Program-made: the position numbers and the translations under genes | The notes under the pieces: generated by a model | Databases searched by the model: none | What the model was told of the DNA's origin: nothing | The model's input: the letters and a program-made list of their open reading frames with translations, nothing else | Shown: one piece after another, positions 1 to 37,268 of the stretch | How positions within the stretch are numbered: position 1 is the first letter of the stretch | How the letters are laid out: the number at the start of each line of letters is the position of its first letter | Source of the DNA: a virus | Taxonomy: Duplodnaviria; Caudoviricetes | DNA: 37,286 nt | Virus record (IMG/VR): IMGVR_UViG_3300028588_000054 | Location: 1 to 37,286 of that record | Strand: one strand, 5' to 3'

Positions 1-124
1 TAACTCGCTGGTACACAGGGTGCACATCCCCGTTGTGCCGGTTAAATTAAATGATAGTGCTAAGTATGTAGAACTGTCTGTAGAGTGCTTGCGGACGAGG
101 GTTCGATTCCCTCCGCCTCCACCA
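1..124 (+). ncRNA. ssrA: tmRNA, 3' portion (truncated by window start)
   Basis: Ends in a T-arm and acceptor strand, GGACGAGGGTTCGATTCCCTCCGCCTCCACCA. It is preceded by TAAGTATGTAGAACTG-type sequence typical of betaproteobacterial tmRNA, with no anticodon/D-arm of a standard tRNA upstream. Confidence 0.85.
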
Positions 125-127
125 GTA
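93..127 (+). repeat. attL core (35-bp direct repeat)
   Basis: GGACGAGGGTTCGATTCCCTCCGCCTCCACCAGTA, identical to 37179-37213. Confidence 0.95.
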
Positions 128-226: not shown

Positions 227-1417
227 TCAGGGCGCCCCGAGTAACTTCGCGGCGCCCTTTTTCTTTCCGTACACTTCTTCGGCGCGGGCGCCGGCATTCT
301 GGTCGGCGTCCGGCATCCACCGGCCGTAGCGCCGGATGATCATAGACCAGTCCGCATGCCCCATCTGCTGCGCGACCCACATCGGGTGCTCGCCAGATGA
401 CAGCATCATACTCGCATATGTATGGCGAGTTTGATAAGGGTAGCGATAGCGCACCTTTGCCCGCTTCAGGGCCCATTGCCACAGCGTCTTGCGGATCGGC
501 TGGTCGCCGATCCAGCGCTCCAGGGTACGCGGGTTCTGGAACACTTCTTCCCCCTTGAGGTATGTGTGGGCTTTCTGCGCCACCAGCGCCTCGGTCGCCA
601 TCGCCAACAATTTCACGTCGCGCCGCCCGGCATCCGTCTTCGGGACCTCCGGACCCTCGGAAAACTGGGTCTGCGCCTTCGACACGCGCACCGTGCCGCG
701 CAGAAAATCGATATCGTTCCAGTCGAGTGCCACCAGCTCGGACGTGCGCAGCCCGGTCCAGAAGGCGAACTGGATCAGGTTGCGCCCCTGCCCTTCCAAC
801 GCCGCCAGGATGGCCGACTGCTCGACGCGGTCGAACGGGTCGATTTCGTCTTCAGCCACCTGGACCACCTTTTTCTTCTTGTAGGTGTATCCGGACAGCG
901 GGTTGACCTCGATCAGCTCGGCGTCGACGGCGGCCTCGAGCGCAGCGCGCATCACGCTCTGGATATTGCTGAGCGTCTTATTGCCGGCCGGGTACCCGAT
1001 CAGTTTGTCACGCATGTGCTTGCGCTTGAATTCCGACAGAGGCATCTTGCCGAACCACGGGTCGAGCTTGCCCATCACGATCTTGCGGTAGGTCTCGTAG
1101 CTGCTGGACTTACGCTCGATCTTTTGCTCGTCCAGCCATTTGTCCAGCCAGTCGCCGATGAGCATCCGCTCGCCCGGTTCCGCCTCCGCTTCCTGGAAGC
1201 GGGCCGCGATCTTCGATTCCGGGAACGAGCCCCGGTAATCGAAGGTGCCGGCAGCGATCGCGTGCAGGATCGCCGCGCGGTGCTGCGCCGCCCGATTCAG
1301 GTTAGCGGCGGTGGGCTTGAGGGGGACCCTTTCCCGACACCGGACGCCCTTATACATAAAGCTGATTTCGATACTGCTTTCCGACGCAGCTTTAACACCC
1401 CGCCCGTCTCTACCCAT
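227..1417 (-). CDS. int: Phage integrase (tyrosine recombinase with N-terminal arm-binding domain)
   Basis: Motifs TGLRTSEL, PKT, YQTRHTYAS, QMGH, RRYG. Lies next to attL. Confidence 0.95.
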   Translation of the reverse strand: MGRDGRGVKAASESSIEISFMYKGVRCRERVPLKPTAANLNRAAQHRAAILHAIAAGTFDYRGSFPESKIAARFQEAEAEPGERMLIGDWLDKWLDEQKIERKSSSYETYRKIVMGKLDPWFGKMPLSEFKRKHMRDKLIGYPAGNKTLSNIQSVMRAALEAAVDAELIEVNPLSGYTYKKKKVVQVAEDEIDPFDRVEQSAILAALEGQGRNLIQFAFWTGLRTSELVALDWNDIDFLRGTVRVSKAQTQFSEGPEVPKTDAGRRDVKLLAMATEALVAQKAHTYLKGEEVFQNPRTLERWIGDQPIRKTLWQWALKRAKVRYRYPYQTRHTYASMMLSSGEHPMWVAQQMGHADWSMIIRRYGRWMPDADQNAGARAEEVYGKKKGAAKLLGAP

Positions 1418-2207: not shown

Positions 2208-2397
2208 GCCGTTCCTTTGCCCTTCCGGGCGTCCTATTCGATTTGTATTCCAGCTGCAGCTTGTCCTCGGCGCGCCGGCGCAGCGCCTGCTGCAGCTCCA
2301 GGTCAAGGCGCATGATCGTCACCTGCTCGAACAGCGCTCGAGCCATCTGCTCGTCGCTGCCGTACATGGCGCGGGTCTGTTCGAAGGTTGCGCTCAT
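2197..2397 (-). CDS. Hypothetical coiled-coil protein
   Basis: 66-aa ORF with an ATGA overlap to the upstream gene. Confidence 0.55.
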   Translation of the reverse strand: MSATFEQTRAMYGSDEQMARALFEQVTIMRLDLELQQALRRRAEDKLQLEYKSNRTPGRAKERHGE

Positions 2398-3623
2398 AAT
2401 TCAGCTTCCGAAAATAGGCGCGGCTGTACTGCGCCGTTCTGGTAGACGGTGTCCATGATCGTAGTTGCGATCGGCTCGTCGCCCTCCCAGCCCTGCGGCC
2501 AGGTGCCGGCCGCGATCAGCTCGCGGATCCGCGCCTCTTCTTCGCCATTGATTAAGTCGATCTCAGGGCGCCCCAGCGCCCGCGCCGCAGCGTTGATCTT
2601 GGTCTGGATCGTCAGCACCCGGTCGAGGCCCATCTGGCGCGCCTCCAGCGTGATCGGCCCCATGCGTTGCGGGTTCTTGGCGATGCTGCCGTCCTTCAGT
2701 AGCTCGGCGCCCGCCTTCCGCAGGCGGTGCTGTGGCTCGCGCAGTTCGCGCCACAACGGTCGCAGGCCCTTGAGCGGCGCCAGGTAGCTCCAGGCCGGCA
2801 GAAGCAACACGCTATCGAGCGCCTTGTCCTCCTGGGCCAGCGCACAGCCGATGCAGCCGGTGCGGGCGTTGATCTCCTCGGCCTCGTCGCCGCCGTACGC
2901 GTCCGCGATCATGGCGGTCGACCAGTCGCCAAATTCGACCGCCGGCGCCCAATGCTTCAGCCATTCCCATACGTGGCAAACGCGCCAGTGCAACAGCGGC
3001 GCCAGGGTGGCCAGTCGGCCACGCAGGCCCTTCGCGTTCGGCAGGACCTGCTGATACCAGCCCTGGCCGCACTCGGCCCCATCCTTTCCGCAGCTCATCT
3101 CGATGCGGCGGTCGCGGATCGCGCTCTCTCCCTGGCGCACGCCGGTGATCATCAGGATCTGGCCATCCAATTGGTCGAGGCGGTCACGCAGCGCCTGCTC
3201 CATCGGGTCGATCTTGATCTGGCGCGTGCACCACCGTAGAGTGTTGTTGTTCGGCGGCGGCACGCCGCGGCCCAGGATGTAGACCATGAAGCGCTTGTCC
3301 ATCGGTGCAGTCACCACCTCGACGCGGATACCGCGCTCTTCTAGTTCGTCCATGATGTGGCGCGCGGCGATCGCCAGCGGCGGCAGCTCCTGGCGCGTAT
3401 CGGCGTAGAACACCGTCAGCGTCTTCGGACGCCGAATCTTGCCGGTGTCCAGCAGGTACATGATCAGGGTCAGCGTGGCCGAGCTGTCCTTGCCGCCCGA
3501 CCAGGCGATACCCCAGTGATCATGGTCGGCGCCGTAGGCCTGCAGCGATTGGATCGTCAGCTCGATCGATTCTGTCATCTGCAGGCGGCGCGCGCTGGCG
3601 CCGAAGATGTCGATTTGGCTCAT
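2394..3623 (-). CDS. PAPS-reductase family / DndC-like PP-loop Fe-S protein
   Basis: SGGKDS PP-loop, ADTRQE, LGRGVPPP..LRWCT..IKIDP, TGVRQGES..R, RTGCIGC. Confidence 0.85.
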   Translation of the reverse strand: MSQIDIFGASARRLQMTESIELTIQSLQAYGADHDHWGIAWSGGKDSSATLTLIMYLLDTGKIRRPKTLTVFYADTRQELPPLAIAARHIMDELEERGIRVEVVTAPMDKRFMVYILGRGVPPPNNNTLRWCTRQIKIDPMEQALRDRLDQLDGQILMITGVRQGESAIRDRRIEMSCGKDGAECGQGWYQQVLPNAKGLRGRLATLAPLLHWRVCHVWEWLKHWAPAVEFGDWSTAMIADAYGGDEAEEINARTGCIGCALAQEDKALDSVLLLPAWSYLAPLKGLRPLWRELREPQHRLRKAGAELLKDGSIAKNPQRMGPITLEARQMGLDRVLTIQTKINAAARALGRPEIDLINGEEEARIRELIAAGTWPQGWEGDEPIATTIMDTVYQNGAVQPRLFSEAEL

Positions 3624-3880
3624 GCCGTTGCTCCCTTCTGCGGCCCGTCCGCCAATATCTCGATTTCTGAACTATCGATGCCACCGGAAATACCGCTCAG
3701 GTAGACGGTCATGGTCTGCTCGCCACCATCCCGATACAGCGTCAGGGTGTGGATGAACTTCTTGACGCCGCCATACAGCACTGGCCTGCAGCAGTGGGCC
3801 GATTTCAGCAGCAGCAGGTGGTGCTTATAGACTTCCGGATCGAGCGGCTCGGATTGGTCGCCCGTTACGAGAATCGACAT
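3620..3880 (-). CDS. Hypothetical protein (MSILVTGDQSEP...)
   Basis: ATG at 3880 with GGAG RBS. Overlaps the RT stop and has an ATGA overlap with the DndC-like gene. Confidence 0.6.
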   Translation of the reverse strand: MSILVTGDQSEPLDPEVYKHHLLLLKSAHCCRPVLYGGVKKFIHTLTLYRDGGEQTMTVYLSGISGGIDSSEIEILADGPQKGATA

Positions 3881-5274
3881 GTTGTTCTCCGGTAGGTTTT
3901 GGTGAAGGCCTGGTTGACGCAGTGCCCGCGGCGCAGCACCGCGCGCGCCAAGTGCGCCCGATCGGCATGGCTGCTGTCCGCCTGGCGCAGCAGCCCGAAG
4001 TAGCTGTTGGCCACCTGGTGCACGTCGACCAGGTCCGCAGTGCGGATCCGCTCGACGGCCTGGCCCACAGTGCGCCGGCGCGTCCTGGTGTGCCAGGGCT
4101 TGATCACGTGGCCGACGAAGTCCACGCCCCGCGCCACTGGCTGCAGGATGGTCTTCGCCGGATTCAGGCGCGCGCCCAGCGTCGCCGGCAGGAAGGCGTC
4201 GATCCCGGCCAGTGCCGCATTCAGCCACTGGGGCGATTCGTGCAGCAGGATGAAGTCGTCGACGTAGCGCACGTAGTGGCGCGCACGTACCTGGTGCTTG
4301 GCGAACTGGTCGAGCGCGTTCAGGTAGATGTTGGCGAAGAACTGGCTGGACAGGTTCCCGATCGGCAGGCCCAGGTGGTCGGGCTGGCTGGCCAGGCGCT
4401 TGTGCGGCGGCACGCGCTCGAGCAGCTGCGGGTCGCCGCGCAACTCGAAGTCCAGGCGCGGATCGTGGAACAGGATCACGCCGGCGAGCCACAGCCACCA
4501 CGGTTCGGTGACGCGCGCGGCGATCTGCGTCCACAGCACGGATTTATCGATCGTCACGAAAAAGTTTGCGAGGTCGCACTTCAGGTACCACAACGGCCGG
4601 CTCCAGTTCTCGGATGCGCTACGGATCTTCGCCTCGAGGCGCCACGCCGCGTACAGCGTGCCGCGGCCCGGGATGCAGGCGCAGGTGTCGCTGATGAACG
4701 AGCGGTAGAAGCGCGGCGCGATGCGGTTGTACAGCAGGTGGTGCACGATCCGGTCGCGGAAGTCGGCCGCCCAGACTTCGCGCGCCTTCGGGCGCGTGAC
4801 GACGAAGCAGATCGACTGGCCGGGCCAGTAGGTGCCGTCCAGCAGCTCGTCGCGCAGGCGCGCCAGGTTGCGTTCCTGGTCCTGCTCGAAGGCGGCGGCG
4901 CTGGCCGAATTGCGTTTGGTCTTGCGGCAATCGAGGTAAGCCCGCACCAGGTCCTCGAAAGAAAAGTCAGCATGGTGGCGACCGGGATAATCTGCGGACC
5001 GCGCGGGCGCGGAGCTCGGCCGACTTGTTGTTGTTGTTCTGGTTGCCGTTGTTGAAGTTCTGGTTCCAGGCATAGTCATCGTTGGCAGCGTGCTGCGGTT
5101 ATTCGTGCTATCTACGTCGCCCCGCCGAAGGCCGCGGTGGCCGATCAGCAGGGAAACTGCGCCAGACCTGCCCGAACTATGTCGGGTGGTATCTGCGGTG
5201 CGCATGGCGGTGGCCTTTTGGGCCAGCGGCACGACCAGATTAAAAGTTCGCACAGTCATGGTGGCCGTGACCAT
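3865..5274 (-). CDS. DGR reverse transcriptase (start uncertain: 5274 coupled to avd; alternatives 5307, 5079, 5073)
   Basis: PKAREVWAADFRDRIVHH, KCDLANFF, GLPIGNLSSQFFAN (DGR-type GxxxSQ), YVRYVDDF, GVDFVG. Adjacent to TR and avd. Confidence 0.95.
   Translation of the reverse strand: MVTATMTVRTFNLVVPLAQKATAMRTADTTRHSSGRSGAVSLLIGHRGLRRGDVDSTNNRSTLPTMTMPGTRTSTTATRTTTTSRPSSAPARSADYPGRHHADFSFEDLVRAYLDCRKTKRNSASAAAFEQDQERNLARLRDELLDGTYWPGQSICFVVTRPKAREVWAADFRDRIVHHLLYNRIAPRFYRSFISDTCACIPGRGTLYAAWRLEAKIRSASENWSRPLWYLKCDLANFFVTIDKSVLWTQIAARVTEPWWLWLAGVILFHDPRLDFELRGDPQLLERVPPHKRLASQPDHLGLPIGNLSSQFFANIYLNALDQFAKHQVRARHYVRYVDDFILLHESPQWLNAALAGIDAFLPATLGARLNPAKTILQPVARGVDFVGHVIKPWHTRTRRRTVGQAVERIRTADLVDVHQVANSYFGLLRQADSSHADRAHLARAVLRRGHCVNQAFTKTYRRTTCRFS
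4988..5097 (-). repeat. DGR template repeat (TR)
   Basis: ~109 bp. In the target frame it reads QHAANDDYAWNQNFNNGNQNNNNKSAELRARAVRRL with 10 AAC codons, and it differs from both VRs only at adenines. Confidence 0.97.
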
Positions 5275-5627
5275 CACGAAGCGGGCGACGTTGCGGAGCG
5301 GCGCCATCCACTGGCCTGCTTGCCGATGCTGGTGGTCAGCTCGACCGCCCGGGCGTACTGCTTGACCGCGATCAGGCGCTTGTCGCGCGAGAGCCGCAGC
5401 AGCAGTTCCGCCACCTGCAGGCGCTCGATAAGCCCCTGCAGGTGCGGTGCCTTCTCCCGCGCCGTGTTGGCGCGGAATACCAGGACCGTGATCTCGACGA
5501 CTTCGTCGCGAATCTTCCCGCCGAGCGATGCCTTGAAATCGCGGGGCATGTTCTTGGCGAGGTCGGTGACGACGTCGAGGAGGTCATAGGCGGCCCTGTA
5601 GATCGGCAGCTGGGTGTGGAGTGCCAT
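5274..5627 (-). CDS. avd: DGR accessory variability determinant (Avd, four-helix bundle)
   Basis: 117-aa basic helical protein, LPIY..AYDL...MPRDFK.SLG...LLRLSRDKRLI....Y.......IGKQASGW, immediately upstream of the TR. Confidence 0.92.
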   Translation of the reverse strand: MALHTQLPIYRAAYDLLDVVTDLAKNMPRDFKASLGGKIRDEVVEITVLVFRANTAREKAPHLQGLIERLQVAELLLRLSRDKRLIAVKQYARAVELTTSIGKQASGWRRSATSPAS

Positions 5628-5644
5628 GCTGATAAAAAGCTAAA

Positions 5645-6124
5645 TTACTGAATGGTTAATCTGCGGACCGCGCGGGCGCGGAGCTCGGCCGACTTGATGT
5701 CGCTGTTCTGGTCGCCGTAGCCGAAGTCCTGGAGCCAGGCATAGTCATCGATGGCAGCGTGCTGCTCGCTGGACCAGTAGTAGCGCTCTTCGAACTGGCC
5801 CTTCAGATTCGCGAACAGCAGCGACTGCTCGCGCCGCGTCGGCAGCTCGCCGCCGGCTTTGGCGGCGAATTCCTTCGCCTTCGACCAGGTGACGTCGTCG
5901 ACGTCGCCGGGCAGCAGGATCAGGTGGTGCGACGGCGTGCCGTCTTCGTCCAGGACGATCCCGGCGTAGTGCTCGTCCGGGCGCAGCTCGATCTCGGTTT
6001 CCGCGATGCGCACGGCGCGCAGCGGCTGGGCCTTGAACGCCGCGATCATGTCGGTCAGCTCCTGGAACTCGCTGCCCAGTTTCTGGTGCGCGGCCTCGAT
6101 GGCCGCGAGGGTGGTAGGGGTCAT
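5645..6124 (-). CDS. DGR target protein 1 (DUF1566/Lcl-like CLec fold, C-terminal VR)
   Basis: W..A..FA...GGELPTRRE..LL, YWSS, AW...F..G......K.....RAVRR. No signal peptide. Confidence 0.9.
   Translation of the reverse strand: MTPTTLAAIEAAHQKLGSEFQELTDMIAAFKAQPLRAVRIAETEIELRPDEHYAGIVLDEDGTPSHHLILLPGDVDDVTWSKAKEFAAKAGGELPTRREQSLLFANLKGQFEERYYWSSEQHAAIDDYAWLQDFGYGDQNSDIKSAELRARAVRRLTIQ
5657..5765 (-). repeat. DGR variable repeat VR1
   Basis: 109-bp ungapped match to TR 4988-5096 with 11 mismatches, all at TR adenines. Confidence 0.97.
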
Positions 6125-6151
6125 GCTCGACTCCGAAAAATAGATGAAGGG

Positions 6152-6781
6152 TTAAATTGCGAATCTGCGGACCGCGCGGGCGCGGAGCTCGGCCGACTTG
6201 CCGTAGTAGCCCTGGTTGCCGTCGTCGAAGCCCTGGCCCCAGGCACAGTCATCGTAGGCAGCGTGCTGCGTGCTCGACCAGTACCATTCCGCCTCGAAGG
6301 CCTGCTCGCCGCCTTCGACGAAGCCCTCGACGGTGGTCTGCGCCGGCAGGTCGCGGCTGTAGGCGACGGTCGGCGGCACGGCCGACGCGTTCACGCCGTT
6401 GCGGCCGTACAGGTAGTTGGCGCGCTTCGTCGGCTTCAGGTTGCGGTACAGGATCTCGAGCTCGTCCTGGCTTGGGATGTACCAGTCGGTGTAGCCGTCG
6501 ATCTCCAGGCCCTGGGCCCAGGCGGCCAGATCGCTGCCGGCCGCGGCCATGGCCATCGTGTTTGCACGGCCGTCGCTGTAGCTGTCGGCGCTGACGACTC
6601 GCTCTTCCGAACCGAGCCAGGCGATGTCATCGCGCTCGCCCAGGGCTCTCGGGGCAACGACCAGGGCGTACGGCACGCCGCCCAGCATGATGCGGCCGGC
6701 CAAGAAGCCGCCGCCGATCTTGTCGCCGATATCGCCAGGCAGGGTGTCGGCCGCAGGTTGAATTTGCTGTTGCATGTCCAT
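6152..6781 (-). CDS. DGR target protein 2 (DUF1566/Lcl-like CLec fold, C-terminal VR); frame is open upstream to 7153/7156
   Basis: IGGGFLAG, DGRANT, GYTDWYIPSQDEL, WYWSSTQ, RARAVRR. ATG 6781 has a GAGGAG RBS. Confidence 0.88.
   Translation of the reverse strand: MDMQQQIQPAADTLPGDIGDKIGGGFLAGRIMLGGVPYALVVAPRALGERDDIAWLGSEERVVSADSYSDGRANTMAMAAAGSDLAAWAQGLEIDGYTDWYIPSQDELEILYRNLKPTKRANYLYGRNGVNASAVPPTVAYSRDLPAQTTVEGFVEGGEQAFEAEWYWSSTQHAAYDDCAWGQGFDDGNQGYYGKSAELRARAVRRFAI
6162..6270 (-). repeat. DGR variable repeat VR2
   Basis: 109-bp ungapped match to TR 4989-5097 with 14 mismatches, all at TR adenines. Confidence 0.97.
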
Positions 6782-7153
6782 CGTTTCTCCTCGTTGTGGT
6801 TGGTAGGCACCGGGGTGCCCGATTTCCGAAAGCCGGAAGCGGCTTCCGCTTTGCCCGACTGGGCAATATTCAAGATGCGACTCGTCCGGCAGCACCGCGC
6901 AGCCTGGGCAGCGGCCGTCGCGCCCCGGGCAGGCGCCGGCATGCGGCTCGCCCGGTTCGGCGCAGCAGCCCGGGCAGGCCAGGTCGACGGCCGGCAGCTG
7001 CTCGGCCAGCTGGCCGATAGCGCGCTCGGTGTCGATGCACAGCAGGCACAGGTGCGCGTGGTGCAGCTCGATCCGCTGGTGGTCGTCCTGCAGGCGGCGC
7101 AGCAGGCGGTGCAGGCTGACCAGGGCTTCGGGCGAGAATTTGGCGTTGTCCAT
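6782..7153 (-). CDS. Cys/His-rich coding region in frame with target 2 (N-terminal extension, or a gene that lost its stop)
   Basis: ATG 7153 overlaps the upstream stop (TGATG). Two CPGC-x7-H-x3-CP repeats and no stop before 6781. Confidence 0.55.
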
Positions 7154-7368
7154 CACCGGGCTCCCGTTTCGGCGCCGCCGGTGCTGCAGGGGCGGGCCAG
7201 CAGCTTGCGCAGCGCGCTTACCATCTGGTCTTCCCGATATGCCTCCAGCGAACCAGTAAGGAACGCGGCGAAGGTGCGCGCCCTGAAGTCGACGTCGTCC
7301 GGCACTTCCTTGACCGCATCGGTGGCGCAGGAAATGACCAGGTCGCGGATCTGCTTGGCGGTGGTCAT
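7153..7368 (-). CDS. Hypothetical protein
   Basis: 71-aa ORF with GAGGAG RBS, coupled at both ends. Confidence 0.6.
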   Translation of the reverse strand: MTTAKQIRDLVISCATDAVKEVPDDVDFRARTFAAFLTGSLEAYREDQMVSALRKLLARPCSTGGAETGAR

Positions 7369-7490
7369 GGCATCAGCTCCTCGAGCAGGCGGCCCAGCAG
7401 GAGAATCGCGCCCATGGCGGAAAACACGACACCCGGGTGCTCGTCGGTCCAGTCGATGCGGTACAGCAGCAGGAAGCGCAGCATGATCAC
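7365..7490 (-). CDS. Small hydrophobic protein (~40 aa, MLRFLLLYRIDWTDEHPGVVFSAMGAILLLGRLLEELMP)
   Basis: Translated by hand (below the ORF-track cutoff). GTGA and ATGA overlaps with both neighbours; one TM-like segment. Confidence 0.55.
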   Translation of the reverse strand: MIMLRFLLLYRIDWTDEHPGVVFSAMGAILLLGRLLEELMP

Positions 7491-7690
7491 CACTCCCGGA
7501 TCAGGTTGCGGCGGCCGATCAGCTGCACCTGGTGCTGGCGCTGCAGCTGAGCCGCGGCGCCGCGGGTGACGGTGGTGGCGCGCGAACGGCTACCGCGCAG
7601 CTGGCGCTCGATCCGCCACAAGGCGGCCGGCTTGGCCAGCTTGCGCGCCAGGCGGCGGGCGATGCGGCCGGTAATGAGGAAAGGCTTCAT
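7487..7690 (-). CDS. Arg-rich small protein, first gene of the pL operon
   Basis: ATG 7690 with GGAG RBS, directly downstream of pL. Confidence 0.55.
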   Translation of the reverse strand: MKPFLITGRIARRLARKLAKPAALWRIERQLRGSRSRATTVTRGAAAQLQRQHQVQLIGRRNLIREW

Positions 7691-7743: not shown

Positions 7744-7772
7744 ACTATACGATTACGTATTGTTGATGTCAA
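7744..7772 (-). promoter_or_regulatory. pL early leftward promoter
   Basis: Minus strand TTGACA-17 nt-TATAGT, overlapped by operators. Confidence 0.85.
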
Positions 7773-7816
7773 TGCGAAAACGCATAATTTTTTTGGCGGA
7801 CGATACAGAGATGTAT
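7747..7816. promoter_or_regulatory. OL operators (three)
   Basis: ATACG-ATTA-CGTAT (7747-7760), ATGCG-AAAA-CGCAT (7772-7785), ATACA-GAGA-TGTAT (7803-7816). Confidence 0.8.
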
Positions 7817-7885: not shown

Positions 7886-8485
7886 CTAAGTGCCTGACAT
7901 CTCGTGCTGCATGCGTTCCGCCAGGCCTCCAAGGCACGACTCGATTGCTTGTTTGTCGTCAGCGCTTAAGGTTATTTTGAACGCGATTATCCTGTCATAT
8001 CGATCCGCTGGATAACGCAAAGAAATTTGCATGGGCTCGCCGTTTGTTATTGCCCAAATCATTTTTATGGCTGCCGGTACGTCTGCACCGCCAATCATAT
8101 AACCCGGATCATCGGATTTAATATATTTGGTCGGCTTTAGCGTTAAATTATCATCGCGCTTAGCCAGCCAGAATGAATCCGGGCCGGGAGTTTTTATTTT
8201 TAATTTCGAGATGTCCCAGCCCTTTTTCTTATCGAATGGAATCGATTGTTGGCCAGCCTTCATTAATGCGAAAGCATCCTTATACATTGTAACGCTGAAA
8301 TCATAAGCAAAAGAATTGGCGGCACCTTCCATGGCTACCGCGACGATTCGAATGCCGCAGGATGTAAAGCCTTTTTCGTCCCGATTAATGTTGGGTTGAG
8401 GCGAGGCCGCATCCGCATTGAACACGGTTTGTGCCATGGACGATCCGAAGGCGAATAGTAAAGAAGCAGCAAGCAAGATTTTCAT
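7886..8485 (-). CDS. Exported low-GC protein (lysogenic cargo, possible superinfection exclusion)
   Basis: N-terminal signal peptide MKILLAASLLFAFGSSMA, AT-rich codon usage, downstream of cI. Confidence 0.7.
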   Translation of the reverse strand: MKILLAASLLFAFGSSMAQTVFNADAASPQPNINRDEKGFTSCGIRIVAVAMEGAANSFAYDFSVTMYKDAFALMKAGQQSIPFDKKKGWDISKLKIKTPGPDSFWLAKRDDNLTLKPTKYIKSDDPGYMIGGADVPAAIKMIWAITNGEPMQISLRYPADRYDRIIAFKITLSADDKQAIESCLGGLAERMQHEMSGT

Positions 8486-8506
8486 AGGTTATTATTCAAT
8501 CCCGTC

Positions 8507-8767
8507 TCAATCAGGAAATATTTCCTCATTCCAATCCACATCGTAGATTGATAGCAGCTCAAGCAAATAAGGAAGTGCGTCGAATTCTGCCACCGCCCTC
8601 GCGCTATTCCAAGAATTGTCGTCACGCGCCACCAGCATTACCGGCAATCGAAATCTTGGCTGCAAATCTGCAATCAGCGGCCCCGCTATATCCCAGCTTA
8701 ATTGCCGAGGTTCCACCAGTACTACCGCCATGCGCATACCGCGTAGACGTTGAATCGTGTGCAGCAT
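8507..8767 (-). CDS. Hypothetical protein coupled to cI
   Basis: ATG 8767 overlaps the cI stop (TAATG); 86 aa. Confidence 0.6.
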   Translation of the reverse strand: MLHTIQRLRGMRMAVVLVEPRQLSWDIAGPLIADLQPRFRLPVMLVARDDNSWNSARAVAEFDALPYLLELLSIYDVDWNEEIFPD

Positions 8768-9480
8768 TAAAACCTTTCCGTTTCCTTCCGCACTACTCGG
8801 CCGATCGCAATGCAAGTCTCACCCCGGCAGCTTTTCTTGTGATACTTCCGCTGGTCAGCGTTATCTGACGTCAGCCACCACTGGCCGGCATCGCGCATCA
8901 GGCGCTTTACGACCGGCTCGCCCTCATAGTTGATCGCGAACACCGCGCCGTCGACCAGCTGCTTGTCAGCAGTGTTGATCACGACCAGGTCACCTTCGTA
9001 AAACGTCGGCTCCATGCTTTCGCCGCGGACCGTGATTGCAATCAGCTTGTCTCGGTGATATCCACGGCGCTCCATCCAGTCCGTCGGCACCGTTGTTGTA
9101 GATCCATCATACGGCTCCGGCTCGACCTCGAAACCACTCAGGCCGGCCGTTAGGCGCAAGCGCACCTTCGGGATAATCGTCAGGCGCGGGTCATCCTGGT
9201 CGGCCCCGTCCACCCGCATGTAACTGCCGGGCCGTAAGCCGGTCACGCCTTCTGCTGGAATGGATAGGTCACGATCCCGCATATCTGCCACTGTCACCTG
9301 AAAGTAGTCAGCCAGCGGCTGAAGCGTCTTCGTACGCGGGTCATTGCTCTCGCCCGTCAGGATCCGATGAATGGTTGGCTGCGGCACGCCGGTCACGCGC
9401 TGAAGCTCGTACGGGCTCGTCTTCCTCTGGGCTATCAGCCACTCGAGGTTCTTTCTCAGATGGGATTGAGTGTTGCTCAT
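8767..9480 (-). CDS. cI: CI-like repressor (HTH + S24 autopeptidase)
   Basis: N-terminal HTH (ELQRVTGVPQPTIHRILTG), AG cleavage site (LTAG), VRGESMEP catalytic Ser, VVKRL catalytic Lys. Confidence 0.93.
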   Translation of the reverse strand: MSNTQSHLRKNLEWLIAQRKTSPYELQRVTGVPQPTIHRILTGESNDPRTKTLQPLADYFQVTVADMRDRDLSIPAEGVTGLRPGSYMRVDGADQDDPRLTIIPKVRLRLTAGLSGFEVEPEPYDGSTTTVPTDWMERRGYHRDKLIAITVRGESMEPTFYEGDLVVINTADKQLVDGAVFAINYEGEPVVKRLMRDAGQWWLTSDNADQRKYHKKSCRGETCIAIGRVVRKETERF

Positions 9481-9486
9481 CTCGCA

Positions 9487-9515
9487 AATATGCGGCAACG
9501 CATACATTGGTGCAA
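9487..9515 (-). promoter_or_regulatory. Putative pRM promoter giving a leaderless cI mRNA
   Basis: Minus strand TTGCAC-17 nt-CATATT, then 6 nt, then the cI ATG. No RBS. Confidence 0.5.
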
Positions 9516-9557
9516 TCCTTTATGCGGTTTCGCATTGACAGCGATACGCTTTCGTAT
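9490..9557. promoter_or_regulatory. OR operators (three)
   Basis: ATGCG-GCAA-CGCAT (9490-9503), ATGCG-GTTT-CGCAT (9522-9535), ATACG-CTTT-CGTAT (9544-9557). Confidence 0.85.
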
Positions 9558-11699: not shown

Positions 11700-11930
11700 A
11701 TGCTGACCCACACGGTGCGCGGCCCTGACGCGGCCGGCAAGTACGCGGTCGGCTACGCCACGCCCGGTACCTCCGCCTTTACCATCGTAGTCGACGGCTG
11801 CTCAGCCGATGCCGCTGGCGCCGAAGCGGCGCGCCTCAACCGCCAGCAGGCAGCCACCGAGCGCGAGATCCGGAGCGAACGCCAGGCCTGCGGCCTGCGC
11901 GACACGCATCCGCGGAAAGGCGGGCGCTGA
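11700..11930 (+). CDS. Hypothetical protein
   Basis: 76 aa, GAGG RBS, TGATG overlap with the replication gene. Confidence 0.6.
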   Translation: MLTHTVRGPDAAGKYAVGYATPGTSAFTIVVDGCSADAAGAEAARLNRQQAATEREIRSERQACGLRDTHPRKGGR

Positions 11931-12733: not shown

Positions 12734-14084
12734 CGACATCAAGGCACCGCCCCACAGCGTCTCGGCCGAACAGGCCGTCATCGGCGCCCTGCTGCGCGAC
12801 AACGACGCGGTCGACCGTGTCGGTGACCTGCGCGCCGAGCACTTCTTCCTGGGCGACCATGCCGCGATCTTCGGGGAGCTAATGCGGCACCTGGCCGCCG
12901 GCCGCAGCTGCGACGTGATCTCGCTCGGTGTCGCCCTGCAGGGCAAGGTCGCCAACTGCCTGCCCTACCTGAACCAGATGGCGCAGAGCACGCCGTCGGC
13001 GTCCAACATCGGGCGCTATGCCGCGATCGTGCGCGACAAGGCGGTCAAGCGTGGCCTGATCCGCTTCGGCCGCGACGTCGCAGAGCTAGCCGCCAATTCG
13101 CCCGAGGAATCGGCGGCCATGGTCGACCAGGCGTCGTCCGAGCTGGAAAAGCTGGCTCTGGCCCGCACCAGGATCGAACCGGTGCGCGCGGCCGATGAGC
13201 TGAAAGCCCACGTCGAGGAGATCGAGCGCCGCATGGATGGCCAGAGCAAGGCGATATCGACCGGCTACCCGGCGCTGGACGAAAAGCTCAGCGGCGGCCT
13301 GCGCGGCGGCGACCTGATCGTACTTGCCGCGCGCCCGAAGATGGGCAAGACGGCGCTGGCCGTGAACATCGCCTGCAACGTGGCTGCCGACCACCCGGTG
13401 CTGGTGCAGTCGATGGAAATGCCGAAATCGCAGCTGCACGACCGCAACCTGGCCAGTCTCGGCCGGATCCCGCTGCCGCACCTGCTGGAGCCGTCGAAGA
13501 TGACGGACCAGGACTGGAGCGGCCTTACGCACGCGTCGATCAAGATCAGCGACATGCAGCTGTTCCTGGATGACCAGGGCGGCCTGCGCCTGATCGACGT
13601 GCGCATGAAGGCCAAGGGCGTGAAGCGCAAGCACGGCCTGAAGCTGATGGTCATCGACTACCTGCAGCTGATGGAAGGCGAAGGCGACAACCGCAACGCC
13701 CAGATCGAGGGCATCACGCGCGGCCTGAAGGCGCTGGCCAAGGAGCTGGACATGGCGATCATCCTGCTGTCGCAGCTAAACCGCAAGCTCGAGGAGCGCC
13801 CGAACAAGCGCCCGGTGCCCTCGGACCTGCGTGACTCGGGCTCGATCGAGCAGGACGCCGATGCCGTGATCTTCCTGTACCGCGACGAGGTGTACAACCC
13901 GGACACCATGGACGTTGGCATGTGCGAAGTCGACGTGGCGCTGTGCCGCCAGGGCGCCCCGGGGCGCGTGGCCCTGACCTACATCGGCGAGCAGGTACGG
14001 TTCGAATCGCTGAACCGCAGCTGGATGCCGGCGCCGAAGCAGGCAGCGAAGCGCGGCAGCCGCGGGTTCGCGGAGTGCCCATGA
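12726..14084 (+). CDS. dnaB: Replicative DNA helicase, DnaB family
   Basis: PPHSVSAEQAVIGALL, AARPKMGKT, SMEM, IDYLQLM, LSQLNR, SDLRDSGSIEQDAD. Confidence 0.96.
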   Translation: MSNDIKAPPHSVSAEQAVIGALLRDNDAVDRVGDLRAEHFFLGDHAAIFGELMRHLAAGRSCDVISLGVALQGKVANCLPYLNQMAQSTPSASNIGRYAAIVRDKAVKRGLIRFGRDVAELAANSPEESAAMVDQASSELEKLALARTRIEPVRAADELKAHVEEIERRMDGQSKAISTGYPALDEKLSGGLRGGDLIVLAARPKMGKTALAVNIACNVAADHPVLVQSMEMPKSQLHDRNLASLGRIPLPHLLEPSKMTDQDWSGLTHASIKISDMQLFLDDQGGLRLIDVRMKAKGVKRKHGLKLMVIDYLQLMEGEGDNRNAQIEGITRGLKALAKELDMAIILLSQLNRKLEERPNKRPVPSDLRDSGSIEQDADAVIFLYRDEVYNPDTMDVGMCEVDVALCRQGAPGRVALTYIGEQVRFESLNRSWMPAPKQAAKRGSRGFAECP

Positions 14085-15136
14085 GCGCGACCCTGTTCAA
14101 GAAGGGCCGGGTCTGGCACTACCGCTTCCAGGTGGGGAAGGTGCGCGTGCAGCGCAGTACCAGGTCGGGCAGCAAGACGGCCGCCGGCGACATCGCCAGG
14201 CGCGAACACGACGCGGCGGTGGTGCGCGCCAATGGCGGCCAGCCGGTGCCGACGCTGGACCAGCTGGCCGAGGCCTGGATCGTTGTCCACAGGCCGGTGG
14301 CCAGCAGCGCGCACGTCGGCAGCGTCGAGCGCTTCCGCCGGCTGCACATGTACGACCTGGCGCAGCTGCCGATCGGCGACATCGCCACCCAGCAGGTCGA
14401 GCTGGCGCGCATCGAGCACCTCAAGACGCACAAGCCGGCCAGCGCGAACCACTGGCTGCGGATCCTGAAGCTGCTCACACTGTGGGCGGTCAAGCGCAAG
14501 ATCCTGGTGGCGTCGCCGTGGAAGGTCTCGATGCTCAAGGTGCAGAAGCGCCCGCGCGCGATCCTGCCGCTGGACGTGGCCGCCGCCTGGTTCGCGGCCG
14601 TCGATGAGACCGCCGCCCGTGCCCCGGCGATCGCCACCGCGGTGCGGATGATGTTCGGCCTGGGCCTGCGCGAGGGCGAGTCCTTGAGCGCGCGCTGGGA
14701 ATGGATGGATTGGCAGCGGTCGACCTACACGCCCGGCATCACCAAGGGCCGTGAGGCTGAACCGATCCCGATCCCCACCTGGCTGCGCGAGCACCTCCAG
14801 CCGATGCGCCAGGCCGAGGGCTTGATTGTGGCCAAGCCGAACGGCGAGCCCTTCGCTCCCGGCTTCGCGCGCCAGGTACTGAAGCAGGCGAACAGGGCTT
14901 GCAAGATCAAGGGCATCACGCCGCACCGGCTGCGCGGCACCTTCGCCACGCTGCTGTCGGAAGCCGGCGTGCCGATCCAGACGATCCAGAAGGTGATGCG
15001 TCACAAGAACTTCGCCACCACGGTCGGTTACCTCGAGAAAAACCTCGACCTGGCAGTGCGCGCGGCGGATGTGATCGGTGAAAAAGCCGGTTTCGGTGGC
15101 GCGAAAGTGGCGCGCACTACGGAACACAGCCTTTAG
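14081..15136 (+). CDS. Second tyrosine recombinase/integrase
   Basis: N-terminal arm-like domain (KKGRVWHYRF...QRST) and catalytic GLREGE, TKG, HRLR, MRH, GYL. ATGA overlap with dnaB. Confidence 0.9.
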   Translation: MSATLFKKGRVWHYRFQVGKVRVQRSTRSGSKTAAGDIARREHDAAVVRANGGQPVPTLDQLAEAWIVVHRPVASSAHVGSVERFRRLHMYDLAQLPIGDIATQQVELARIEHLKTHKPASANHWLRILKLLTLWAVKRKILVASPWKVSMLKVQKRPRAILPLDVAAAWFAAVDETAARAPAIATAVRMMFGLGLREGESLSARWEWMDWQRSTYTPGITKGREAEPIPIPTWLREHLQPMRQAEGLIVAKPNGEPFAPGFARQVLKQANRACKIKGITPHRLRGTFATLLSEAGVPIQTIQKVMRHKNFATTVGYLEKNLDLAVRAADVIGEKAGFGGAKVARTTEHSL

Positions 15137-16835: not shown

Positions 16836-17363
16836 ATGAGCGAAAAGAAACCAGCCAAGACGCCACGCAAGCCGGCGACTAAGGCCCGGGCCAAACCGCT
16901 CGGGCGCCCCAGCAAGTACACGAAGAAAATTGCCGACCACATCTGCGCTCGCCTCGCCGCGGGTGTGCCACTGGCCGAGATTTGCCGCGCTGACAACATG
17001 CCAGCCGTGCGCACGGTCAGCGATTGGAAGAAGGCCAACGCCACCTTTTCCGCCGACTTCGCACGTGCACGCGACGAGGGCTTCGACCGAATCGCCGCCG
17101 ACTGCCTCCAGATCGCCGACGAAACCAGCAGCGACACACTGTCCACCGAACACGGCGACCGCCCGAACACTGAGTGGATCGCTCGCTCGAAGCTGCGCAT
17201 CGAGACGCGCCTGAAGCTTCTGGCGAAGTGGGATCCCAAGCGCTACGGCGACAAGGTCGACATCAACCACGGCGGCCAGGACGGCAACCCGATTAAAACC
17301 GAGTCGCACGTGCAGCTGTCGGCGGAGGAGTCTTACAAGAGGCTCATCGAGGGCGGCAACTGA
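16836..17363 (+). CDS. terS: Terminase small subunit (Sf6-like)
   Basis: GRPSKYT..IAD.IC.RLA.G..L.EICR...MP...TV..W and RSKLRIETR.KLLAKWDPKRYGDK. Confidence 0.9.
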   Translation: MSEKKPAKTPRKPATKARAKPLGRPSKYTKKIADHICARLAAGVPLAEICRADNMPAVRTVSDWKKANATFSADFARARDEGFDRIAADCLQIADETSSDTLSTEHGDRPNTEWIARSKLRIETRLKLLAKWDPKRYGDKVDINHGGQDGNPIKTESHVQLSAEESYKRLIEGGN

Positions 17364-17595
17364 TTTTGATGCACCGAAGCGCAGCGCGTCGGCACCGCTG
17401 CATCACATCCTGGTGAATGAATTTCTTTGAACAACCCTGCCATATGGGAGCTTCTGACAGGCCGGAACAGCACGGCCACCACACGAATGCGCTCCAGCAA
17501 GAACGCATCCGTGTGGTCAAGCGCTGATACGCGAGGCTGCTGGTCAGCCGCCACTACATGTCTCCAGCTCCAGGCTCCGCAGGGTCTGGGGCCTT

Positions 17596-17621
17596 GCCCG
17601 CCGCGTGCGGGCCTTTTTATT
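17596..17621 (+). terminator. Intrinsic terminator
   Basis: GCCCGC-CGCGT-GCGGGC-CTTTTTATT. Confidence 0.6.
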
Positions 17622-17633
17622 CGAAGGTGACCT

Positions 17634-18104
17634 ATGGCCGCTGGCCCAATCGTCGTGCCGAACAAGGCGCGGCTGAACCTGTTCAACGCCACCAACCTGC
17701 TGGGCGCCGATGCGTCCAAGTTCAAGCTGGCCCTGGTGGGCTCGGGCTGGACGCCAGACAACGGCGATACCGGCATCGAGGTCTGGGGCGACGTCTCCGC
17801 GAACGAAATCGCGAACGGCGGCGGCTACACGACCGGCGGCGTCGCACTGACCGGCGTGTCGCTGACCCAATCCGGCGGCACGGTGAAGTTCACCAGCGGC
17901 GCGGCCCAGTGGACGGCCACCGGCAGCGGCATCGCAGCCTGGCGCCGTGGCGTCATCTACTACGCCGGCACGCTGAACGGCAAGGTGAACCCGATCGTTG
18001 GCCACTTCCTGGGCGATGCAACGCCGGCGGACATCCCGGCCACCGCCGCACCCAACACGCTGACCGTTACCCCGAACGCTGCGGGGCTCTTCTCCGCGAG
18101 CTGA
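17634..18104 (+). CDS. Putative virion structural/appendage protein
   Basis: G/T/A-rich beta protein (FKLALV...NEIANGGGYTTGGVALT) seen in phage fibre modules. Confidence 0.65.
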   Translation: MAAGPIVVPNKARLNLFNATNLLGADASKFKLALVGSGWTPDNGDTGIEVWGDVSANEIANGGGYTTGGVALTGVSLTQSGGTVKFTSGAAQWTATGSGIAAWRRGVIYYAGTLNGKVNPIVGHFLGDATPADIPATAAPNTLTVTPNAAGLFSAS

Positions 18105-18106
18105 TC

Positions 18107-18535
18107 ATGCCGACGATCCGTGAACGCATCATCGGCCTGGCTGCCCTGATCCCGGCCCGGCTCAACCGCGACCTGGATGCGCTTGCCGCTGGTCTGAACG
18201 CGGCGCCGGCGAAGGTGCTGTCTACGCGCTACATCAACGCGCAGAACATCCTGTCGGAATGCGCGGATGGCGCCGACATCATCAGCCGCCTCAACGGCGC
18301 GGCGAGCACGAACAGCACCGTCAAGTACGCGATGCTGACCCTGGTGCAGGACAAGGGGCTGAACGTCGGCGATCCGACGATCCAGTCGCTCTTCGACAGC
18401 CTGACCGCTGGCCTGGTGCCGGTACTGACCGCATCCCAGGCAACGCAGCTGAAGAACCTGGCCATGCTGCCGCAGATGGTCACCCGCACCGACGTCGAGG
18501 CGGCAATGTACAACCCGAATGGAACCGAGAAATGA
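18107..18535 (+). CDS. Hypothetical protein (MPTIRERIIG...)
   Basis: Phage-like codon usage, tightly packed, ATGA overlap with the next gene. Confidence 0.65.
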   Translation: MPTIRERIIGLAALIPARLNRDLDALAAGLNAAPAKVLSTRYINAQNILSECADGADIISRLNGAASTNSTVKYAMLTLVQDKGLNVGDPTIQSLFDSLTAGLVPVLTASQATQLKNLAMLPQMVTRTDVEAAMYNPNGTEK

Positions 18536-18921
18536 CCGCACCGACCCGCTCTACCATCCCCATCCTCGCGTCGGTGAGCGTCCCGGCCGGCGGCAGCAAG
18601 GCTGCGCCGGCGGCCGGCGGTACCGGCGCATGGGTCGACGTGCGTGGTCAGAACGGCGGCCAGCTGGCGTACAGCGTCAAGAACGGCAGCATCGCACCGG
18701 GCGTTCAGGGTCAGTTCACCTTCCAGGTCGGCGACGGCAACGACACATCCACCGTTACGAACGTCACCGACCTGTGGACTGGCGGCGGCACCACCGTCGG
18801 CAGCGACGAAACCACCGGTCTCCTCGAACTGCCGGCTACCGCGTCGTTTGTCCGGATGCTCTGCTACGGCCACACCACGAACGCCGTGACGTTCCGAGGC
18901 ACCCTCTTCGCGAAGGCCTGA
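18532..18921 (+). CDS. Putative beta-sandwich virion protein (MTAPTRSTIP...)
   Basis: 129 aa, G/T-rich, coupled to its neighbours. Confidence 0.6.
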   Translation: MTAPTRSTIPILASVSVPAGGSKAAPAAGGTGAWVDVRGQNGGQLAYSVKNGSIAPGVQGQFTFQVGDGNDTSTVTNVTDLWTGGGTTVGSDETTGLLELPATASFVRMLCYGHTTNAVTFRGTLFAKA

Positions 18922-18922
18922 T

Positions 18923-20137
18923 ATGCGAGGCATGCGCTACCAGCCGCAAGGCAGCGCGCGGCTCAACACGAATAATCCCCTTGTGCGGGGCGCGTTCGTT
19001 TATCCACTCGCCGCTCATAACAGAATTCTGGGCGCTGCGTCCGGCACGCCAAGCGTGGAAGGCAATACAGCGAGACGAGGCGGCCCAACCGGCTTGTACT
19101 ACAGTCTCAGTAGCGCGCAGGCCGATGTAATCCGATTGGGCGCGAACGCGGCAATGCAGGCCGAAGCGTTCAGTACGCTGATCGTTGTCAAATTCGATGC
19201 GCTTCCCGCCAGCGGTACATCCTTTACGATCTTCCAGAGCGGCTCAGCTGCGGATCAAAGCTACCAAGCGAGTAATGGTAGTTTCCAGTTCAGGGTAGGA
19301 GATGCGGGTGACCTACAAGTAATCAAAGACAATACGGTTGCCGTATATTCCGGCCCTGCTGGTGTGATCGCCCCGGGTAAATGGACGGTCGTGTCGCTCG
19401 CGTTCGCATCTGGGGCGCCAGGTTATTTACGTCTCGCCGTCAATGGTCGAGTGGTCGGCCAGCACACTCCAAGCATCGACAGCTTCAAAGCCGGCAATTT
19501 CACCATCGGCACAAAAGACGGGACAACCAGTGAGAAGGGTCCGGTTGACGTCGCACTTTTCGGCTATTGGCCCCGCACGCAGGCGGAGCATGAACAGATC
19601 GCACTGAGCCGCAATCCTTGGCAGATGTTCCAAGCATCGCTTGAAGAGGATGCGGTTGCCCCGGTTGTCGCGACGATCGCCCCAAGCGCGGCGTCGCTGG
19701 TCATTACCGGCTTCGCACCCACCGTGGCGCGCGGCGTCACCACCAACGTGGTGCCCGGTGCCACAGGGTTGGCCCTGACCGGCTTCGCACCGAGCGTCAC
19801 CCAGGGCATGACGACGGGCGTGTCGCCGGCGCCGGTCGCGCTGACCCTGGCGGGCTACGCGCCGGCAGTGACCCAGACCGCGGCGCGCGGCGCAAACCCG
19901 GCACCGGCGACGCTGACGATCACAGGCTACGCCCCGACCGTGGCGCGCGGCGCAAGCTTGGCCGTCGCCGGCGGCGCGCCGGCCGCCATGACGCTGACCG
20001 GGTATGCGCCGACGGTCACCCAGGCCAACAACCTGGTGCCGCACTACCACGACGCCACGATCATGCGGCTGAGCGGCGTGCGTGGCGTGGCCAACCTCGG
20101 TCCGGACAGACTTCAACAGACAGCAGGCCTTCCATGA
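18923..20137 (+). CDS. LamG/ConA-like domain protein with five C-terminal ~23-aa repeats (fibre/adhesin-like)
   Basis: GKWTVVSL...LRLAVNG...FTIG lectin-like pattern, ALSRNPWQMF, repeats L.[IL].G[FY]AP.V. Confidence 0.7.
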   Translation: MRGMRYQPQGSARLNTNNPLVRGAFVYPLAAHNRILGAASGTPSVEGNTARRGGPTGLYYSLSSAQADVIRLGANAAMQAEAFSTLIVVKFDALPASGTSFTIFQSGSAADQSYQASNGSFQFRVGDAGDLQVIKDNTVAVYSGPAGVIAPGKWTVVSLAFASGAPGYLRLAVNGRVVGQHTPSIDSFKAGNFTIGTKDGTTSEKGPVDVALFGYWPRTQAEHEQIALSRNPWQMFQASLEEDAVAPVVATIAPSAASLVITGFAPTVARGVTTNVVPGATGLALTGFAPSVTQGMTTGVSPAPVALTLAGYAPAVTQTAARGANPAPATLTITGYAPTVARGASLAVAGGAPAAMTLTGYAPTVTQANNLVPHYHDATIMRLSGVRGVANLGPDRLQQTAGLP

Positions 20138-20442
20138 ACCCCAATGTTGGCGAATACGGCATCGCCTATGACGTAAACACGAACTACGACATGTCGGCGG
20201 CCACCTCGGTGGTGATGGACATCACCCGGCCGGACGGCAGCAAGATCGCCGCGCCGGCGGCCGTCGGCCTGGTCGACCTGGCCACCGCCGACATGGGCAC
20301 GTTCGCCGCGAAGAAGTACTGCACCTACGTGTTCAAGGACGGCGACCTGAACCAGCCTGGCGACTACCGCGTGCGCGTGGTCTACACCGACAGCACGAAG
20401 CGGCTGATTGCCGACCCTGTCGCCTTTACCGTGAACCCATAA
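20134..20442 (+). CDS. BppU-N-like small structural protein
   Basis: ITRPDGS...YVFKDGDLNQPGDY motif. Confidence 0.6.
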   Translation: MNPNVGEYGIAYDVNTNYDMSAATSVVMDITRPDGSKIAAPAAVGLVDLATADMGTFAAKKYCTYVFKDGDLNQPGDYRVRVVYTDSTKRLIADPVAFTVNP

Positions 20443-20451
20443 GGAAACACC

Positions 20452-20595
20452 ATGCACTTCCAGCTTACCCTCGACGACGAGCGCCGATGGGTGCTGGTCC
20501 TGCATCAGATCGAGCGCATGCGCATCGCGATCCTGAGCGACGCCGGCACGCCGCCACCAGCAGCACACGATAGGCCTGGCGATGGCCGCGCCTGA
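20452..20595 (+). CDS. Small hypothetical protein (47 aa)
   Basis: Translated by hand; AAGGA RBS; overlaps the terL start. Confidence 0.45.
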   Translation: MHFQLTLDDERRWVLVLHQIERMRIAILSDAGTPPPAAHDRPGDGRA

Positions 20596-37178: not shown

Positions 37179-37213
37179 GGACGAGGGTTCGATTCCCTCC
37201 GCCTCCACCAGTA
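37179..37213 (+). repeat. attR core (duplicated ssrA 3' end)
   Basis: Identical to 93-127. Confidence 0.95.
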
Positions 37214-37268
37214 TTCAAAAACAAAGCCCCGCTGGCGCAAGCCAGCGGGGCTTTGTTTTTGAATACTG
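37209..37268 (+). terminator. Host ssrA terminator, perfect 28-bp inverted repeat with GCAA loop
   Basis: CAGTATTCAAAAACAAAGCCCCGCTGGC-GCAA-GCCAGCGGGGCTTTGTTTTTGAATACTG. Confidence 0.85.

Follow-up and report, generated by a model that had tools for sequence, protein, structure and literature searches.

A diversity-generating retroelement in the predicted early region of a P22-like prophage: two predicted lectin-fold targets that are probably not virion proteins

The 37,286-nucleotide (nt) stretch analyzed here (positions 1 to 37,286 of the IMG/VR record IMGVR_UViG_3300028588_000054; hereafter, the window) holds a whole prophage, P22-like and integrated in the transfer-messenger RNA (tmRNA) gene, which carries a diversity-generating retroelement (DGR) with two target genes between its cI-like repressor and its integrase genes. 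Judged by its reverse transcriptase (RT), its pairing of template repeat (TR) and variable repeats (VRs), its Avd protein, and the position of the VR at the C terminus of a target with a predicted C-type-lectin (CLec) fold, the cassette is a complete DGR. Altogether, our analysis argues that the two targets are very probably early, nonvirion proteins. We further propose a model, in which our confidence is evenly balanced, whereby this early cassette rewrites the binding loops of two likely cytoplasmic lectin-fold proteins that bind variable host proteins, most probably defense factors.

Results

Organization of the DGR cassette

The cassette lies on the minus strand in the order target 1, target 2, avd, RT-15 RNA, TR, and RT, and is listed here with its VRs and upstream promoter.

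7744..7785, minus strand: pL-like promoter (7772-7744) with two operator-like palindromes (7747-7760 and 7772-7785)
6152..6781, minus strand: target 1, 209 amino acids (aa), modeled Lcl_C/DUF1566 C-type-lectin fold (PF07603, 47 bits, cut-off 34.9)
6166..6269, minus strand: VR1, 14/14 mismatches to the TR at TR adenines
5645..6124, minus strand: target 2, 159 aa, modeled as an N-terminal helix (residues 6-32) and a compact C-type-lectin domain (PF07603)
5662..5765, minus strand: VR2, 11/11 mismatches to the TR at TR adenines
5274..5627, minus strand: avd, 117 aa (PF22296, 47.3 bits, cut-off 40, E 3e-12; phrog_3206, E 2e-33)
5096..5290, minus strand: RT-15 structured RNA (Rfam RF03018, 184 bits for a gathering score of 82, full model)
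4993..5096, minus strand: TR, with 10 AAC codons and a GC-rich 3' end identical in both VRs
3865..5073, minus strand: DGR reverse transcriptase, about 402 aa (PF00078; phrog_1423, E 5e-118; YVDD at 4266)

An earlier sequence-only reading of this DNA had described an intact minus-strand DGR with RT, TR, avd, and two VR-bearing genes, and all of these parts were recovered in place. Two corrections concern the surroundings of the TR. An RT-15 structured RNA is located between avd and the TR, directly 5' of the latter, and the RT reading frame extends across the TR, with a probable start within the repeat at 5073 or 5079. In the window, this frame has no stop across the TR; the same holds for 70 of the 71 loci examined, of which 65 have a start codon inside the TR. 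The ATG at 4973 was rejected as the RT start because it is out of frame while the RT frame remains open through the TR. Positions 4993-5079 of the TR thus probably also encode the N terminus of the RT, in a Thr-rich frame. The related locus L114 has an in-frame insertion between the TR and the RT core (about 11740-11836), which appears tRNA-like by eye only.

The 3' signals of a DGR, as in the Bordetella phage BPP-1, comprise a GC-rich initiation of mutagenic homing sequence and a hairpin 3' of the VR. Here, a GC-rich 3' end is common to the TR and both VRs, and no strong hairpin was found in the 60 nt past VR1 and VR2.

Adenine-specific variation and activity in relatives

All 25 mismatches between VRs and TR (14 and 11, over 104 nt) fall at TR adenines. 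With adenines making up 31 of the 104 TR bases, the chance of adenine-only mismatches is about 4e-8 for VR1 and 2e-6 for VR2. Our recount likewise agrees with the previous figure of 15^10 (5.8e11) possible variants for the ten AAC codons of the TR. The window was scanned for VRs on both strands with TR adenines as wildcards and the 73 non-A positions scored; TR, VR1, and VR2 each reached 73/73, the next best site reached 43/73, and there were no further VRs in the window. Thus, the tail and head genes of the window contain no VR, and the statement that the tailspike, needle, and LamG genes lack a TR-like repeat, made by eye in the sequence-only reading, is upheld.

Near-identical relatives differ mainly within their VRs. 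The L037/L038 pair displays 14 VR differences, all at TR adenines, for 0 of 4,218 sites outside; L088/L077 displays 37, of which 36 are at adenines, for 3 of 4,447 outside; and L005/L003 displays 27, of which 26 are at adenines, for 19 of 4,476 outside. This concentration at TR adenines indicates, at the level of sequence comparison, that the DGR family is active. Pooled over 91 of 96 RT loci, not dereplicated, VR mismatches number 2,572 at adenines versus 49 others, a ratio that is inflated because the score used penalizes non-adenine mismatches. Among 1,341 mutated AAC codons in 158 VRs of relatives, Tyr, Asp, Asn, Ser, and Gly represent 24, 16, 14, 13, and 12%, respectively, and Cys occurs 14 times versus 99 expected under independence; we do not take this composition to demonstrate selection, since a context bias of the RT might account for it.

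Predicted target proteins

Target 2 scores 26.4 bits (E 9e-6) with PF07603, under the cut-off that target 1 exceeds. The target 1 model has a predicted local distance difference test score (pLDDT) of 79.5, with poorly predicted VR loops, and its best structural match is the C-terminal domain of Legionella Lcl (Z 10.5, root mean square deviation [rmsd] 3.9, 123 aligned residues). For target 2 (pLDDT 93.2), the Lcl match (Z 13.1, rmsd 3.7, 112 aligned) is level with that to the Bdellovibrio fiber tip (Z 13.0). From these models, both targets are predicted to be Lcl-type CLec folds. With target 1 as the query, a PDB sequence search returned nothing at E 10. The ESM Atlas yielded only unnamed or Lcl_C clusters. 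The N-terminal helix of target 2 shows 7-residue indels among relatives, which suggests a coiled coil; the trimer model of this protein (score 0.20, mark 0.42) was counted neither for nor against a trimer.

Hydropathy and motif inspection revealed no lipobox or clear hydrophobic leader in either target, the maximum 19-residue mean being 1.56 for target 1 and 0.65 for target 2. The earlier claim of targets devoid of signal peptide and virion anchor is consistent with this low hydropathy, the lack of a lipobox, and the lack of a fiber domain, the leader being judged on hydropathy only. The two sizes claimed, 159 and 209 aa, were also recovered, with one reservation for target 1 that comes from the following feature.

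6782..7153, minus strand: Cys-rich open reading frame (ORF), in frame with target 1 (ATG at 7153, no intervening stop)

As there is no stop between this ORF and target 1, a 333-aa fused form is possible. The ORF is fused in L001 as well, and L002 and L006 have a separate upstream match. A strong Shine-Dalgarno sequence before 6781, together with the typical length of the relatives (near 203 aa), favors the 209-aa form. The ORF contains repeated CPGC motifs, and the fusion may be metal binding.

A pL-like promoter upstream of the cassette

The promoter at 7772-7744 is sigma-70-like, with 11 of 12 consensus matches. Its palindromes reappear at 9490, 9522, and 9544 (9490-9557) around a divergent promoter adjoining cI, and the three perfect palindrome copies of the window are all located at these two promoters. 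No terminator-like sites are listed on the minus strand from the pL-like promoter to the RT. This is the anatomy of a repressor-controlled pL, as the sequence-only reading had proposed, and we infer that the repressor controls it.

Conserved early context in related phages

Target 1 served as the seed of the context survey, which therefore describes the target 1 clade only, a restriction that we count among the points against our model. Target 1 has 905 homologues of similar length, and a near-full match was present in 121 fetched loci, or 102 after dereplication. A full RT is nearby in 73 of these, whereas it is absent, partial, or distant in 11, and 18 loci are too short to judge. Named hosts of the relatives are chiefly Oxalobacteraceae, Rhodocyclaceae, and Gallionellaceae. 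Among RT homologues, 11 phage records stand at 62 to 70% identity, the following ones being at about 35%.

An early, recombination, or regulatory marker lies within 5 kb in 82 of the 85 dereplicated loci with enough flank. In all seven phages inspected among those 11 records (Cruim01, LPPA56, E192a, Magia, Haboob, QDWS, and phPA-G), the cassette sits amid recombination, regulatory, methyltransferase, or integrase genes. Across the surveyed loci, neighbors include Lar-like, Gam-like, and methyltransferase genes. Of the 126 shared neighbor families, not one matches a head, tail, or connector family best, and two are lysis families; only 2 of 136 long singleton neighbors match tail families, both on the opposite strand. 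This neighbor survey used ORFs called by a simple script and covered, among singletons, the long ones. The anchorless cassette spans several phage builds: besides the P22-like phage of the window, it is present in Magia, a predicted myophage, in phPA-G, which is D3-like, and in a locus that has transposase genes of the Mu type. RT-less orphan targets occur in Medea1 and D3.

Several loci (L034-L036, L042, L045, L051, L115, L117-L121, and L125) bear extra VR-containing targets 2 to 9 kb from the RT, those of L034-L036 and L120 being on the opposite strand. In L092, a BstA abortive-infection gene (5361-6287) is found between cI and the cassette.

A homologue in PA5oct and related jumbo phages

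Through a distant match, we reached a stand-alone target homologue in lytic jumbo phages of the PA5oct group. PA5oct gp104 aligns with the target 1 family with an hhalign probability of 99.5 (37% identity, 150 columns) and lacks the 39-residue insertion of target 1. In a quick tree, which has no root and from which no origin is claimed, it falls within the early-type targets (26-row group, Shimodaira-Hasegawa-like approximate likelihood ratio test support of 92). For PA5oct, high early transcription is described for most of the gp34-gp105 block, and gp104 (EST35_0104) is missing from the published table of 93 virion proteins, although this table includes proteins as small as 8.6 to 17 kDa (PMC7318152).

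The gp104 gene has 56% GC in a genome of 33% GC (the latter value being from PMC7318152), and outside the tip it shares 91% identity with the Haboob prophage target. Such orphans occur in nine jumbo phages (L134-L142, e.g., L135:3001-3492), in a high-GC patch and with four VR tip types, and one insertion site is common to the five aligned copies. Comparison of the PA5oct tip with the Haboob TR gave 15 of 16 mismatches at adenines; the other tip types gave 14-20 of 19-33. No RT of this clade was found in jumbo or D3 records among the matches listed. The simplest reading would be one capture followed by repeated tip replacement, which suggests that the tip matters. Taken with the early block and the virion table of PA5oct, the nine RT-less phages with four tips favor an early, nonvirion protein whose tip is under selection. 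D3 orf68 is an orphan similar to those of the jumbo phages.

Comparison with known systems

In BPP-1, the gene order is mtd-avd-TR-brt. The present cassette resembles it in gene order, Avd, adenine-specific VR, and a CLec-fold target. However, Mtd acts in the virion as a tropism protein (PMC8144416) and belongs to a different CLec class (structural match at Z 4.7 only), whereas no virion gene of the window has a VR, and BPP-1-type RTs are absent from the 11 records above 60% RT identity.

The closest published layout is that of Magia (Burkholderia cenocepacia, MT701587), for which no function beyond adaptation or host range has been put forward (PMC7883833). Its RT is 64.9% identical, the order of small target(s), avd, TR, and RT is the same, the arm also lies between repressor and integrase, and the targets are annotated as short lectin-fold proteins. 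Magia has a tail predicted to be contractile and three short target-2-type targets, of which one is remote; the window phage is P22-like, and its two targets lie side by side, one belonging to the longer target-1 type.

Likewise, the accessible text of Wu et al. (2018) defines a category "d" (DUF1566, all CLec2 VRs included, Legionella LdtA type), about half of which are short single-domain proteins, and reports two targets in 13% of DGRs (PMC5758913). The DUF1566/Lcl_C domain over a C-terminal VR places the window targets close to this category, target 1 above the cut-off and target 2 weakly. LdtA is a surface lipoprotein, in contrast to the window targets, which have neither lipobox nor clear hydrophobic leader and belong to a phage early arm. 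PA5oct gp104 and D3 orf68 share the homologous stand-alone domain, with a DGR-type tip in PA5oct, and differ as orphans with no RT of this clade among the matches listed. Finally, cytoplasmic DGR-diversified CLec domains have been proposed, in the text accessible to us, as antigen sensors in cellular conflict systems of multicellular bacteria (PMC10907252). The likeness lies in predicted cytoplasmic hypervariable CLec domains and a conflict setting; those sensors, however, are encoded on the chromosome and linked with NTPase or ternary conflict systems, whereas the window targets are phage genes without an effector.

Thus, the rarity implied by the sequence-only reading does not hold: the layout is published for Magia and common in related phages, and short DUF1566-only targets are catalogued, as are two-target cassettes. 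What is added here is the link to published experimental data on a homologue, PA5oct gp104. A literature search, in which subscription journals were mostly not covered, gave no paper that says what DGR targets in the early arm of phages do; the supplements of Wu et al. (2018) and Roux et al. (2021) may list the clade. The accessible parts of the papers on Medea1, PMBT3, Cruim01/Aurca01, and Haboob and of the jumbo-phage review contain neither virion proteomics nor DGR discussion of these genes.

Prophage setting and surrounding genes

The following features frame the cassette.

93..127, plus strand: attL, at the tmRNA 3' end (35-bp perfect repeat paired with 37179-37213)
227..1417, minus strand: integrase (profile matches), terminal gene of the same arm as the DGR
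8767..9507, minus strand: cI-like repressor (helix-turn-helix and peptidase S24)

Profile matches also identified O/DnaB replication genes, Q, and P22-type portal, coat, and ejection genes. The distance of some 27 kb between cassette and tailspike, given in the sequence-only reading, depends on a tailspike label (33486-35552) based on weak matches only. The best named target 1 homologues come from Massilia, and the host is therefore probably a member of the Oxalobacteraceae.

Downstream of the RT, a PAPS-reductase-family gene (2394-3623; best PADLOC match DndC, E 2e-37) is a possible DNA-modification gene. Between cI and pL, a low-GC cargo (7886-8815, about 50%) encodes a 199-aa ORF, whose start resembles a signal peptide and which is present in L001 too, and a small ORF; Pfam and PHROG scans gave no match for these cargo ORFs, which are perhaps exclusion genes. 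A second tyrosine recombinase gene (13922-15136) is directly 3' of dnaB in the rightward operon, as L001 and L017 also have one. About 3.2 kb of ORFs without assignment (17363-20582) separate the small and large terminase genes and include repeats spaced 72 bp apart (19689-20027). Immediately beyond attR, a 28-bp perfect inverted repeat (37209-37268) is terminator-like.

Discussion

In a DGR, RT-Avd makes an error-prone copy of the TR RNA, the errors falling at adenines, and the resulting cDNA replaces the VR. We propose that, when cI leaves pL at induction or infection, one early transcript would be produced, and since transcription would start on cI release, mutagenesis and target expression would coincide with phage replication. 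The RT-Avd copy of the TR would overwrite either VR, and progeny would carry differing tips. The small cytoplasmic proteins would then bind a variable host factor, probably a defense protein; tips jamming or diverting a restricting host factor would be selected, and some progeny could replicate where the parent fails. The domain is related to tail-fiber tip domains and so probably represents a receptor-binding tip that was put to new use without the fiber. An extension, which we advance tentatively and as possible rather than probable, is that temperate phages of a widespread proteobacterial clade maintain a library of intracellular counterdefense binders that mutates itself, much as antibodies vary. 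RT-less lytic jumbo phages would have captured one target from it and would keep renewing the tip with prophage sequence, through recombination or retrohoming in trans.

Several points weigh against this model. Evidence for activity comes from relatives and not from the window copy, and six other pairs or trios with assignable VRs have no VR difference, some of them probably because a single genome was deposited twice. As for PA5oct gp104, it is an orphan and only distantly related, from a different phage; its early status is known at the level of the block without its own transcript counts, and its absence from mass spectrometry may be a false negative. In the accessible part of Roux et al. 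(2021), viral DGR targets are mostly annotated as tail proteins (PMC8144416, section 9). The domain also occurs at the end of tail proteins in other phages, which the sequence-only reading had not weighed when it called the targets early and nonvirion, a claim that the marker genes of relatives and the PA5oct data otherwise strengthen. Moreover, that reading had suggested host defense proteins or rival phage parts as ligands. No ligand evidence was found for the targets, and, with no known ligand, interaction, or phenotype, an anti-defense role is guilt by association; we consider a ligand of the anti-defense or host-takeover class to have about as much for it as against it.

The tail-associated homologues are at the heart of a different and quite improbable view, in which the targets would be small accessory virion adhesins, or head-packaged proteins, made early and changing host range by ordinary tropism switching. 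Among 36 longer homologues, P0134 has the domain fused to a tail-collar fiber N terminus and P0143 to phage-tail domains (41 to 42% identity for both), others being fused to Ig-like or LamG domains; the closest solved folds are extracellular adhesins; host range is one possibility in the Magia paper (PMC7883833); and the late module of PMBT3 contains two target 1 homologues (L026:1976-2488 and 6986-7639). Against this stand the absence of a fiber or anchor domain, the conserved early position in phages with different tails, the absence of the PA5oct homologue from the virion proteome, and the quick tree, in which early-type targets and most long fused forms are on different sides. PMBT3 is a whiskered siphovirus whose whisker genes are not identified. 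The same fold matches, Legionella Lcl and the Bdellovibrio fiber tip, would suit targets that build up inside the cell and, once it has lysed, work as free lectins, masking receptors on neighbors or binding biofilm glycans; the early rather than late position and the lack of direct support make this very improbable.

If the targets are early cytoplasmic binders, their ligands could also be capsid, tail, or replication proteins of other phages or mobile elements, resulting in superinfection exclusion or interference during coinfection. All of the evidence for early, nonvirion proteins applies equally to this proposal, as does the precedent of DGR-diversified CLec antigen sensors, proposed in the accessible text of PMC10907252. 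Nevertheless, the repressor-type operators imply a promoter expected to be silent in a lysogen, where exclusion would be of greatest benefit; no effector domain fused to the targets or conserved beside the cassette was found among the relatives; and neither target matches a PADLOC family. We regard this proposal as unlikely. The cassette could instead be a largely selfish or near-neutral passenger, spreading by recombination in the variable early arm with targets that do little. Here, the ratio of nonsynonymous to synonymous substitution rates outside the VR is below 1 in all ten closest pairs per target, which we count for selection and our model, but moderate (0.34 to 0.73 for target 1, 0.22 to 0.90 for target 2), 11 of the 84 clusters that could be judged have an incomplete RT or none, RT-less orphans persist in Medea1 and D3, and VR frameshifts or stops in L001, L005, L028, L116, L059, and L120 mean that the genes are dispensable or that assemblies err. 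A passenger sits poorly, however, with frames that are intact in most of about 200 VR entries of relatives, with both structural Gln codons kept in 152 of 152 VRs (to which RT context bias could contribute), and with an intact orphan bearing four tips in nine isolates of a lytic jumbo-phage genus, and we judge it clearly unlikely.

Our study shifts the interest of this cassette, whose layout is in print and common, to the question of its function, which is now testable in cultured systems: PA5oct and D3 (Pseudomonas aeruginosa PAO1) provide natural tip alleles, and Haboob, phPA-G, and Magia provide the full cassette. Phage DGRs have been read almost entirely as host-receptor switches, as far as the accessible text of PMC8144416 goes. 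If this clade diversifies cytoplasmic early proteins as we propose, targeted hypermutation would also serve intracellular conflict, and new inhibitors could arise faster than by gene capture.

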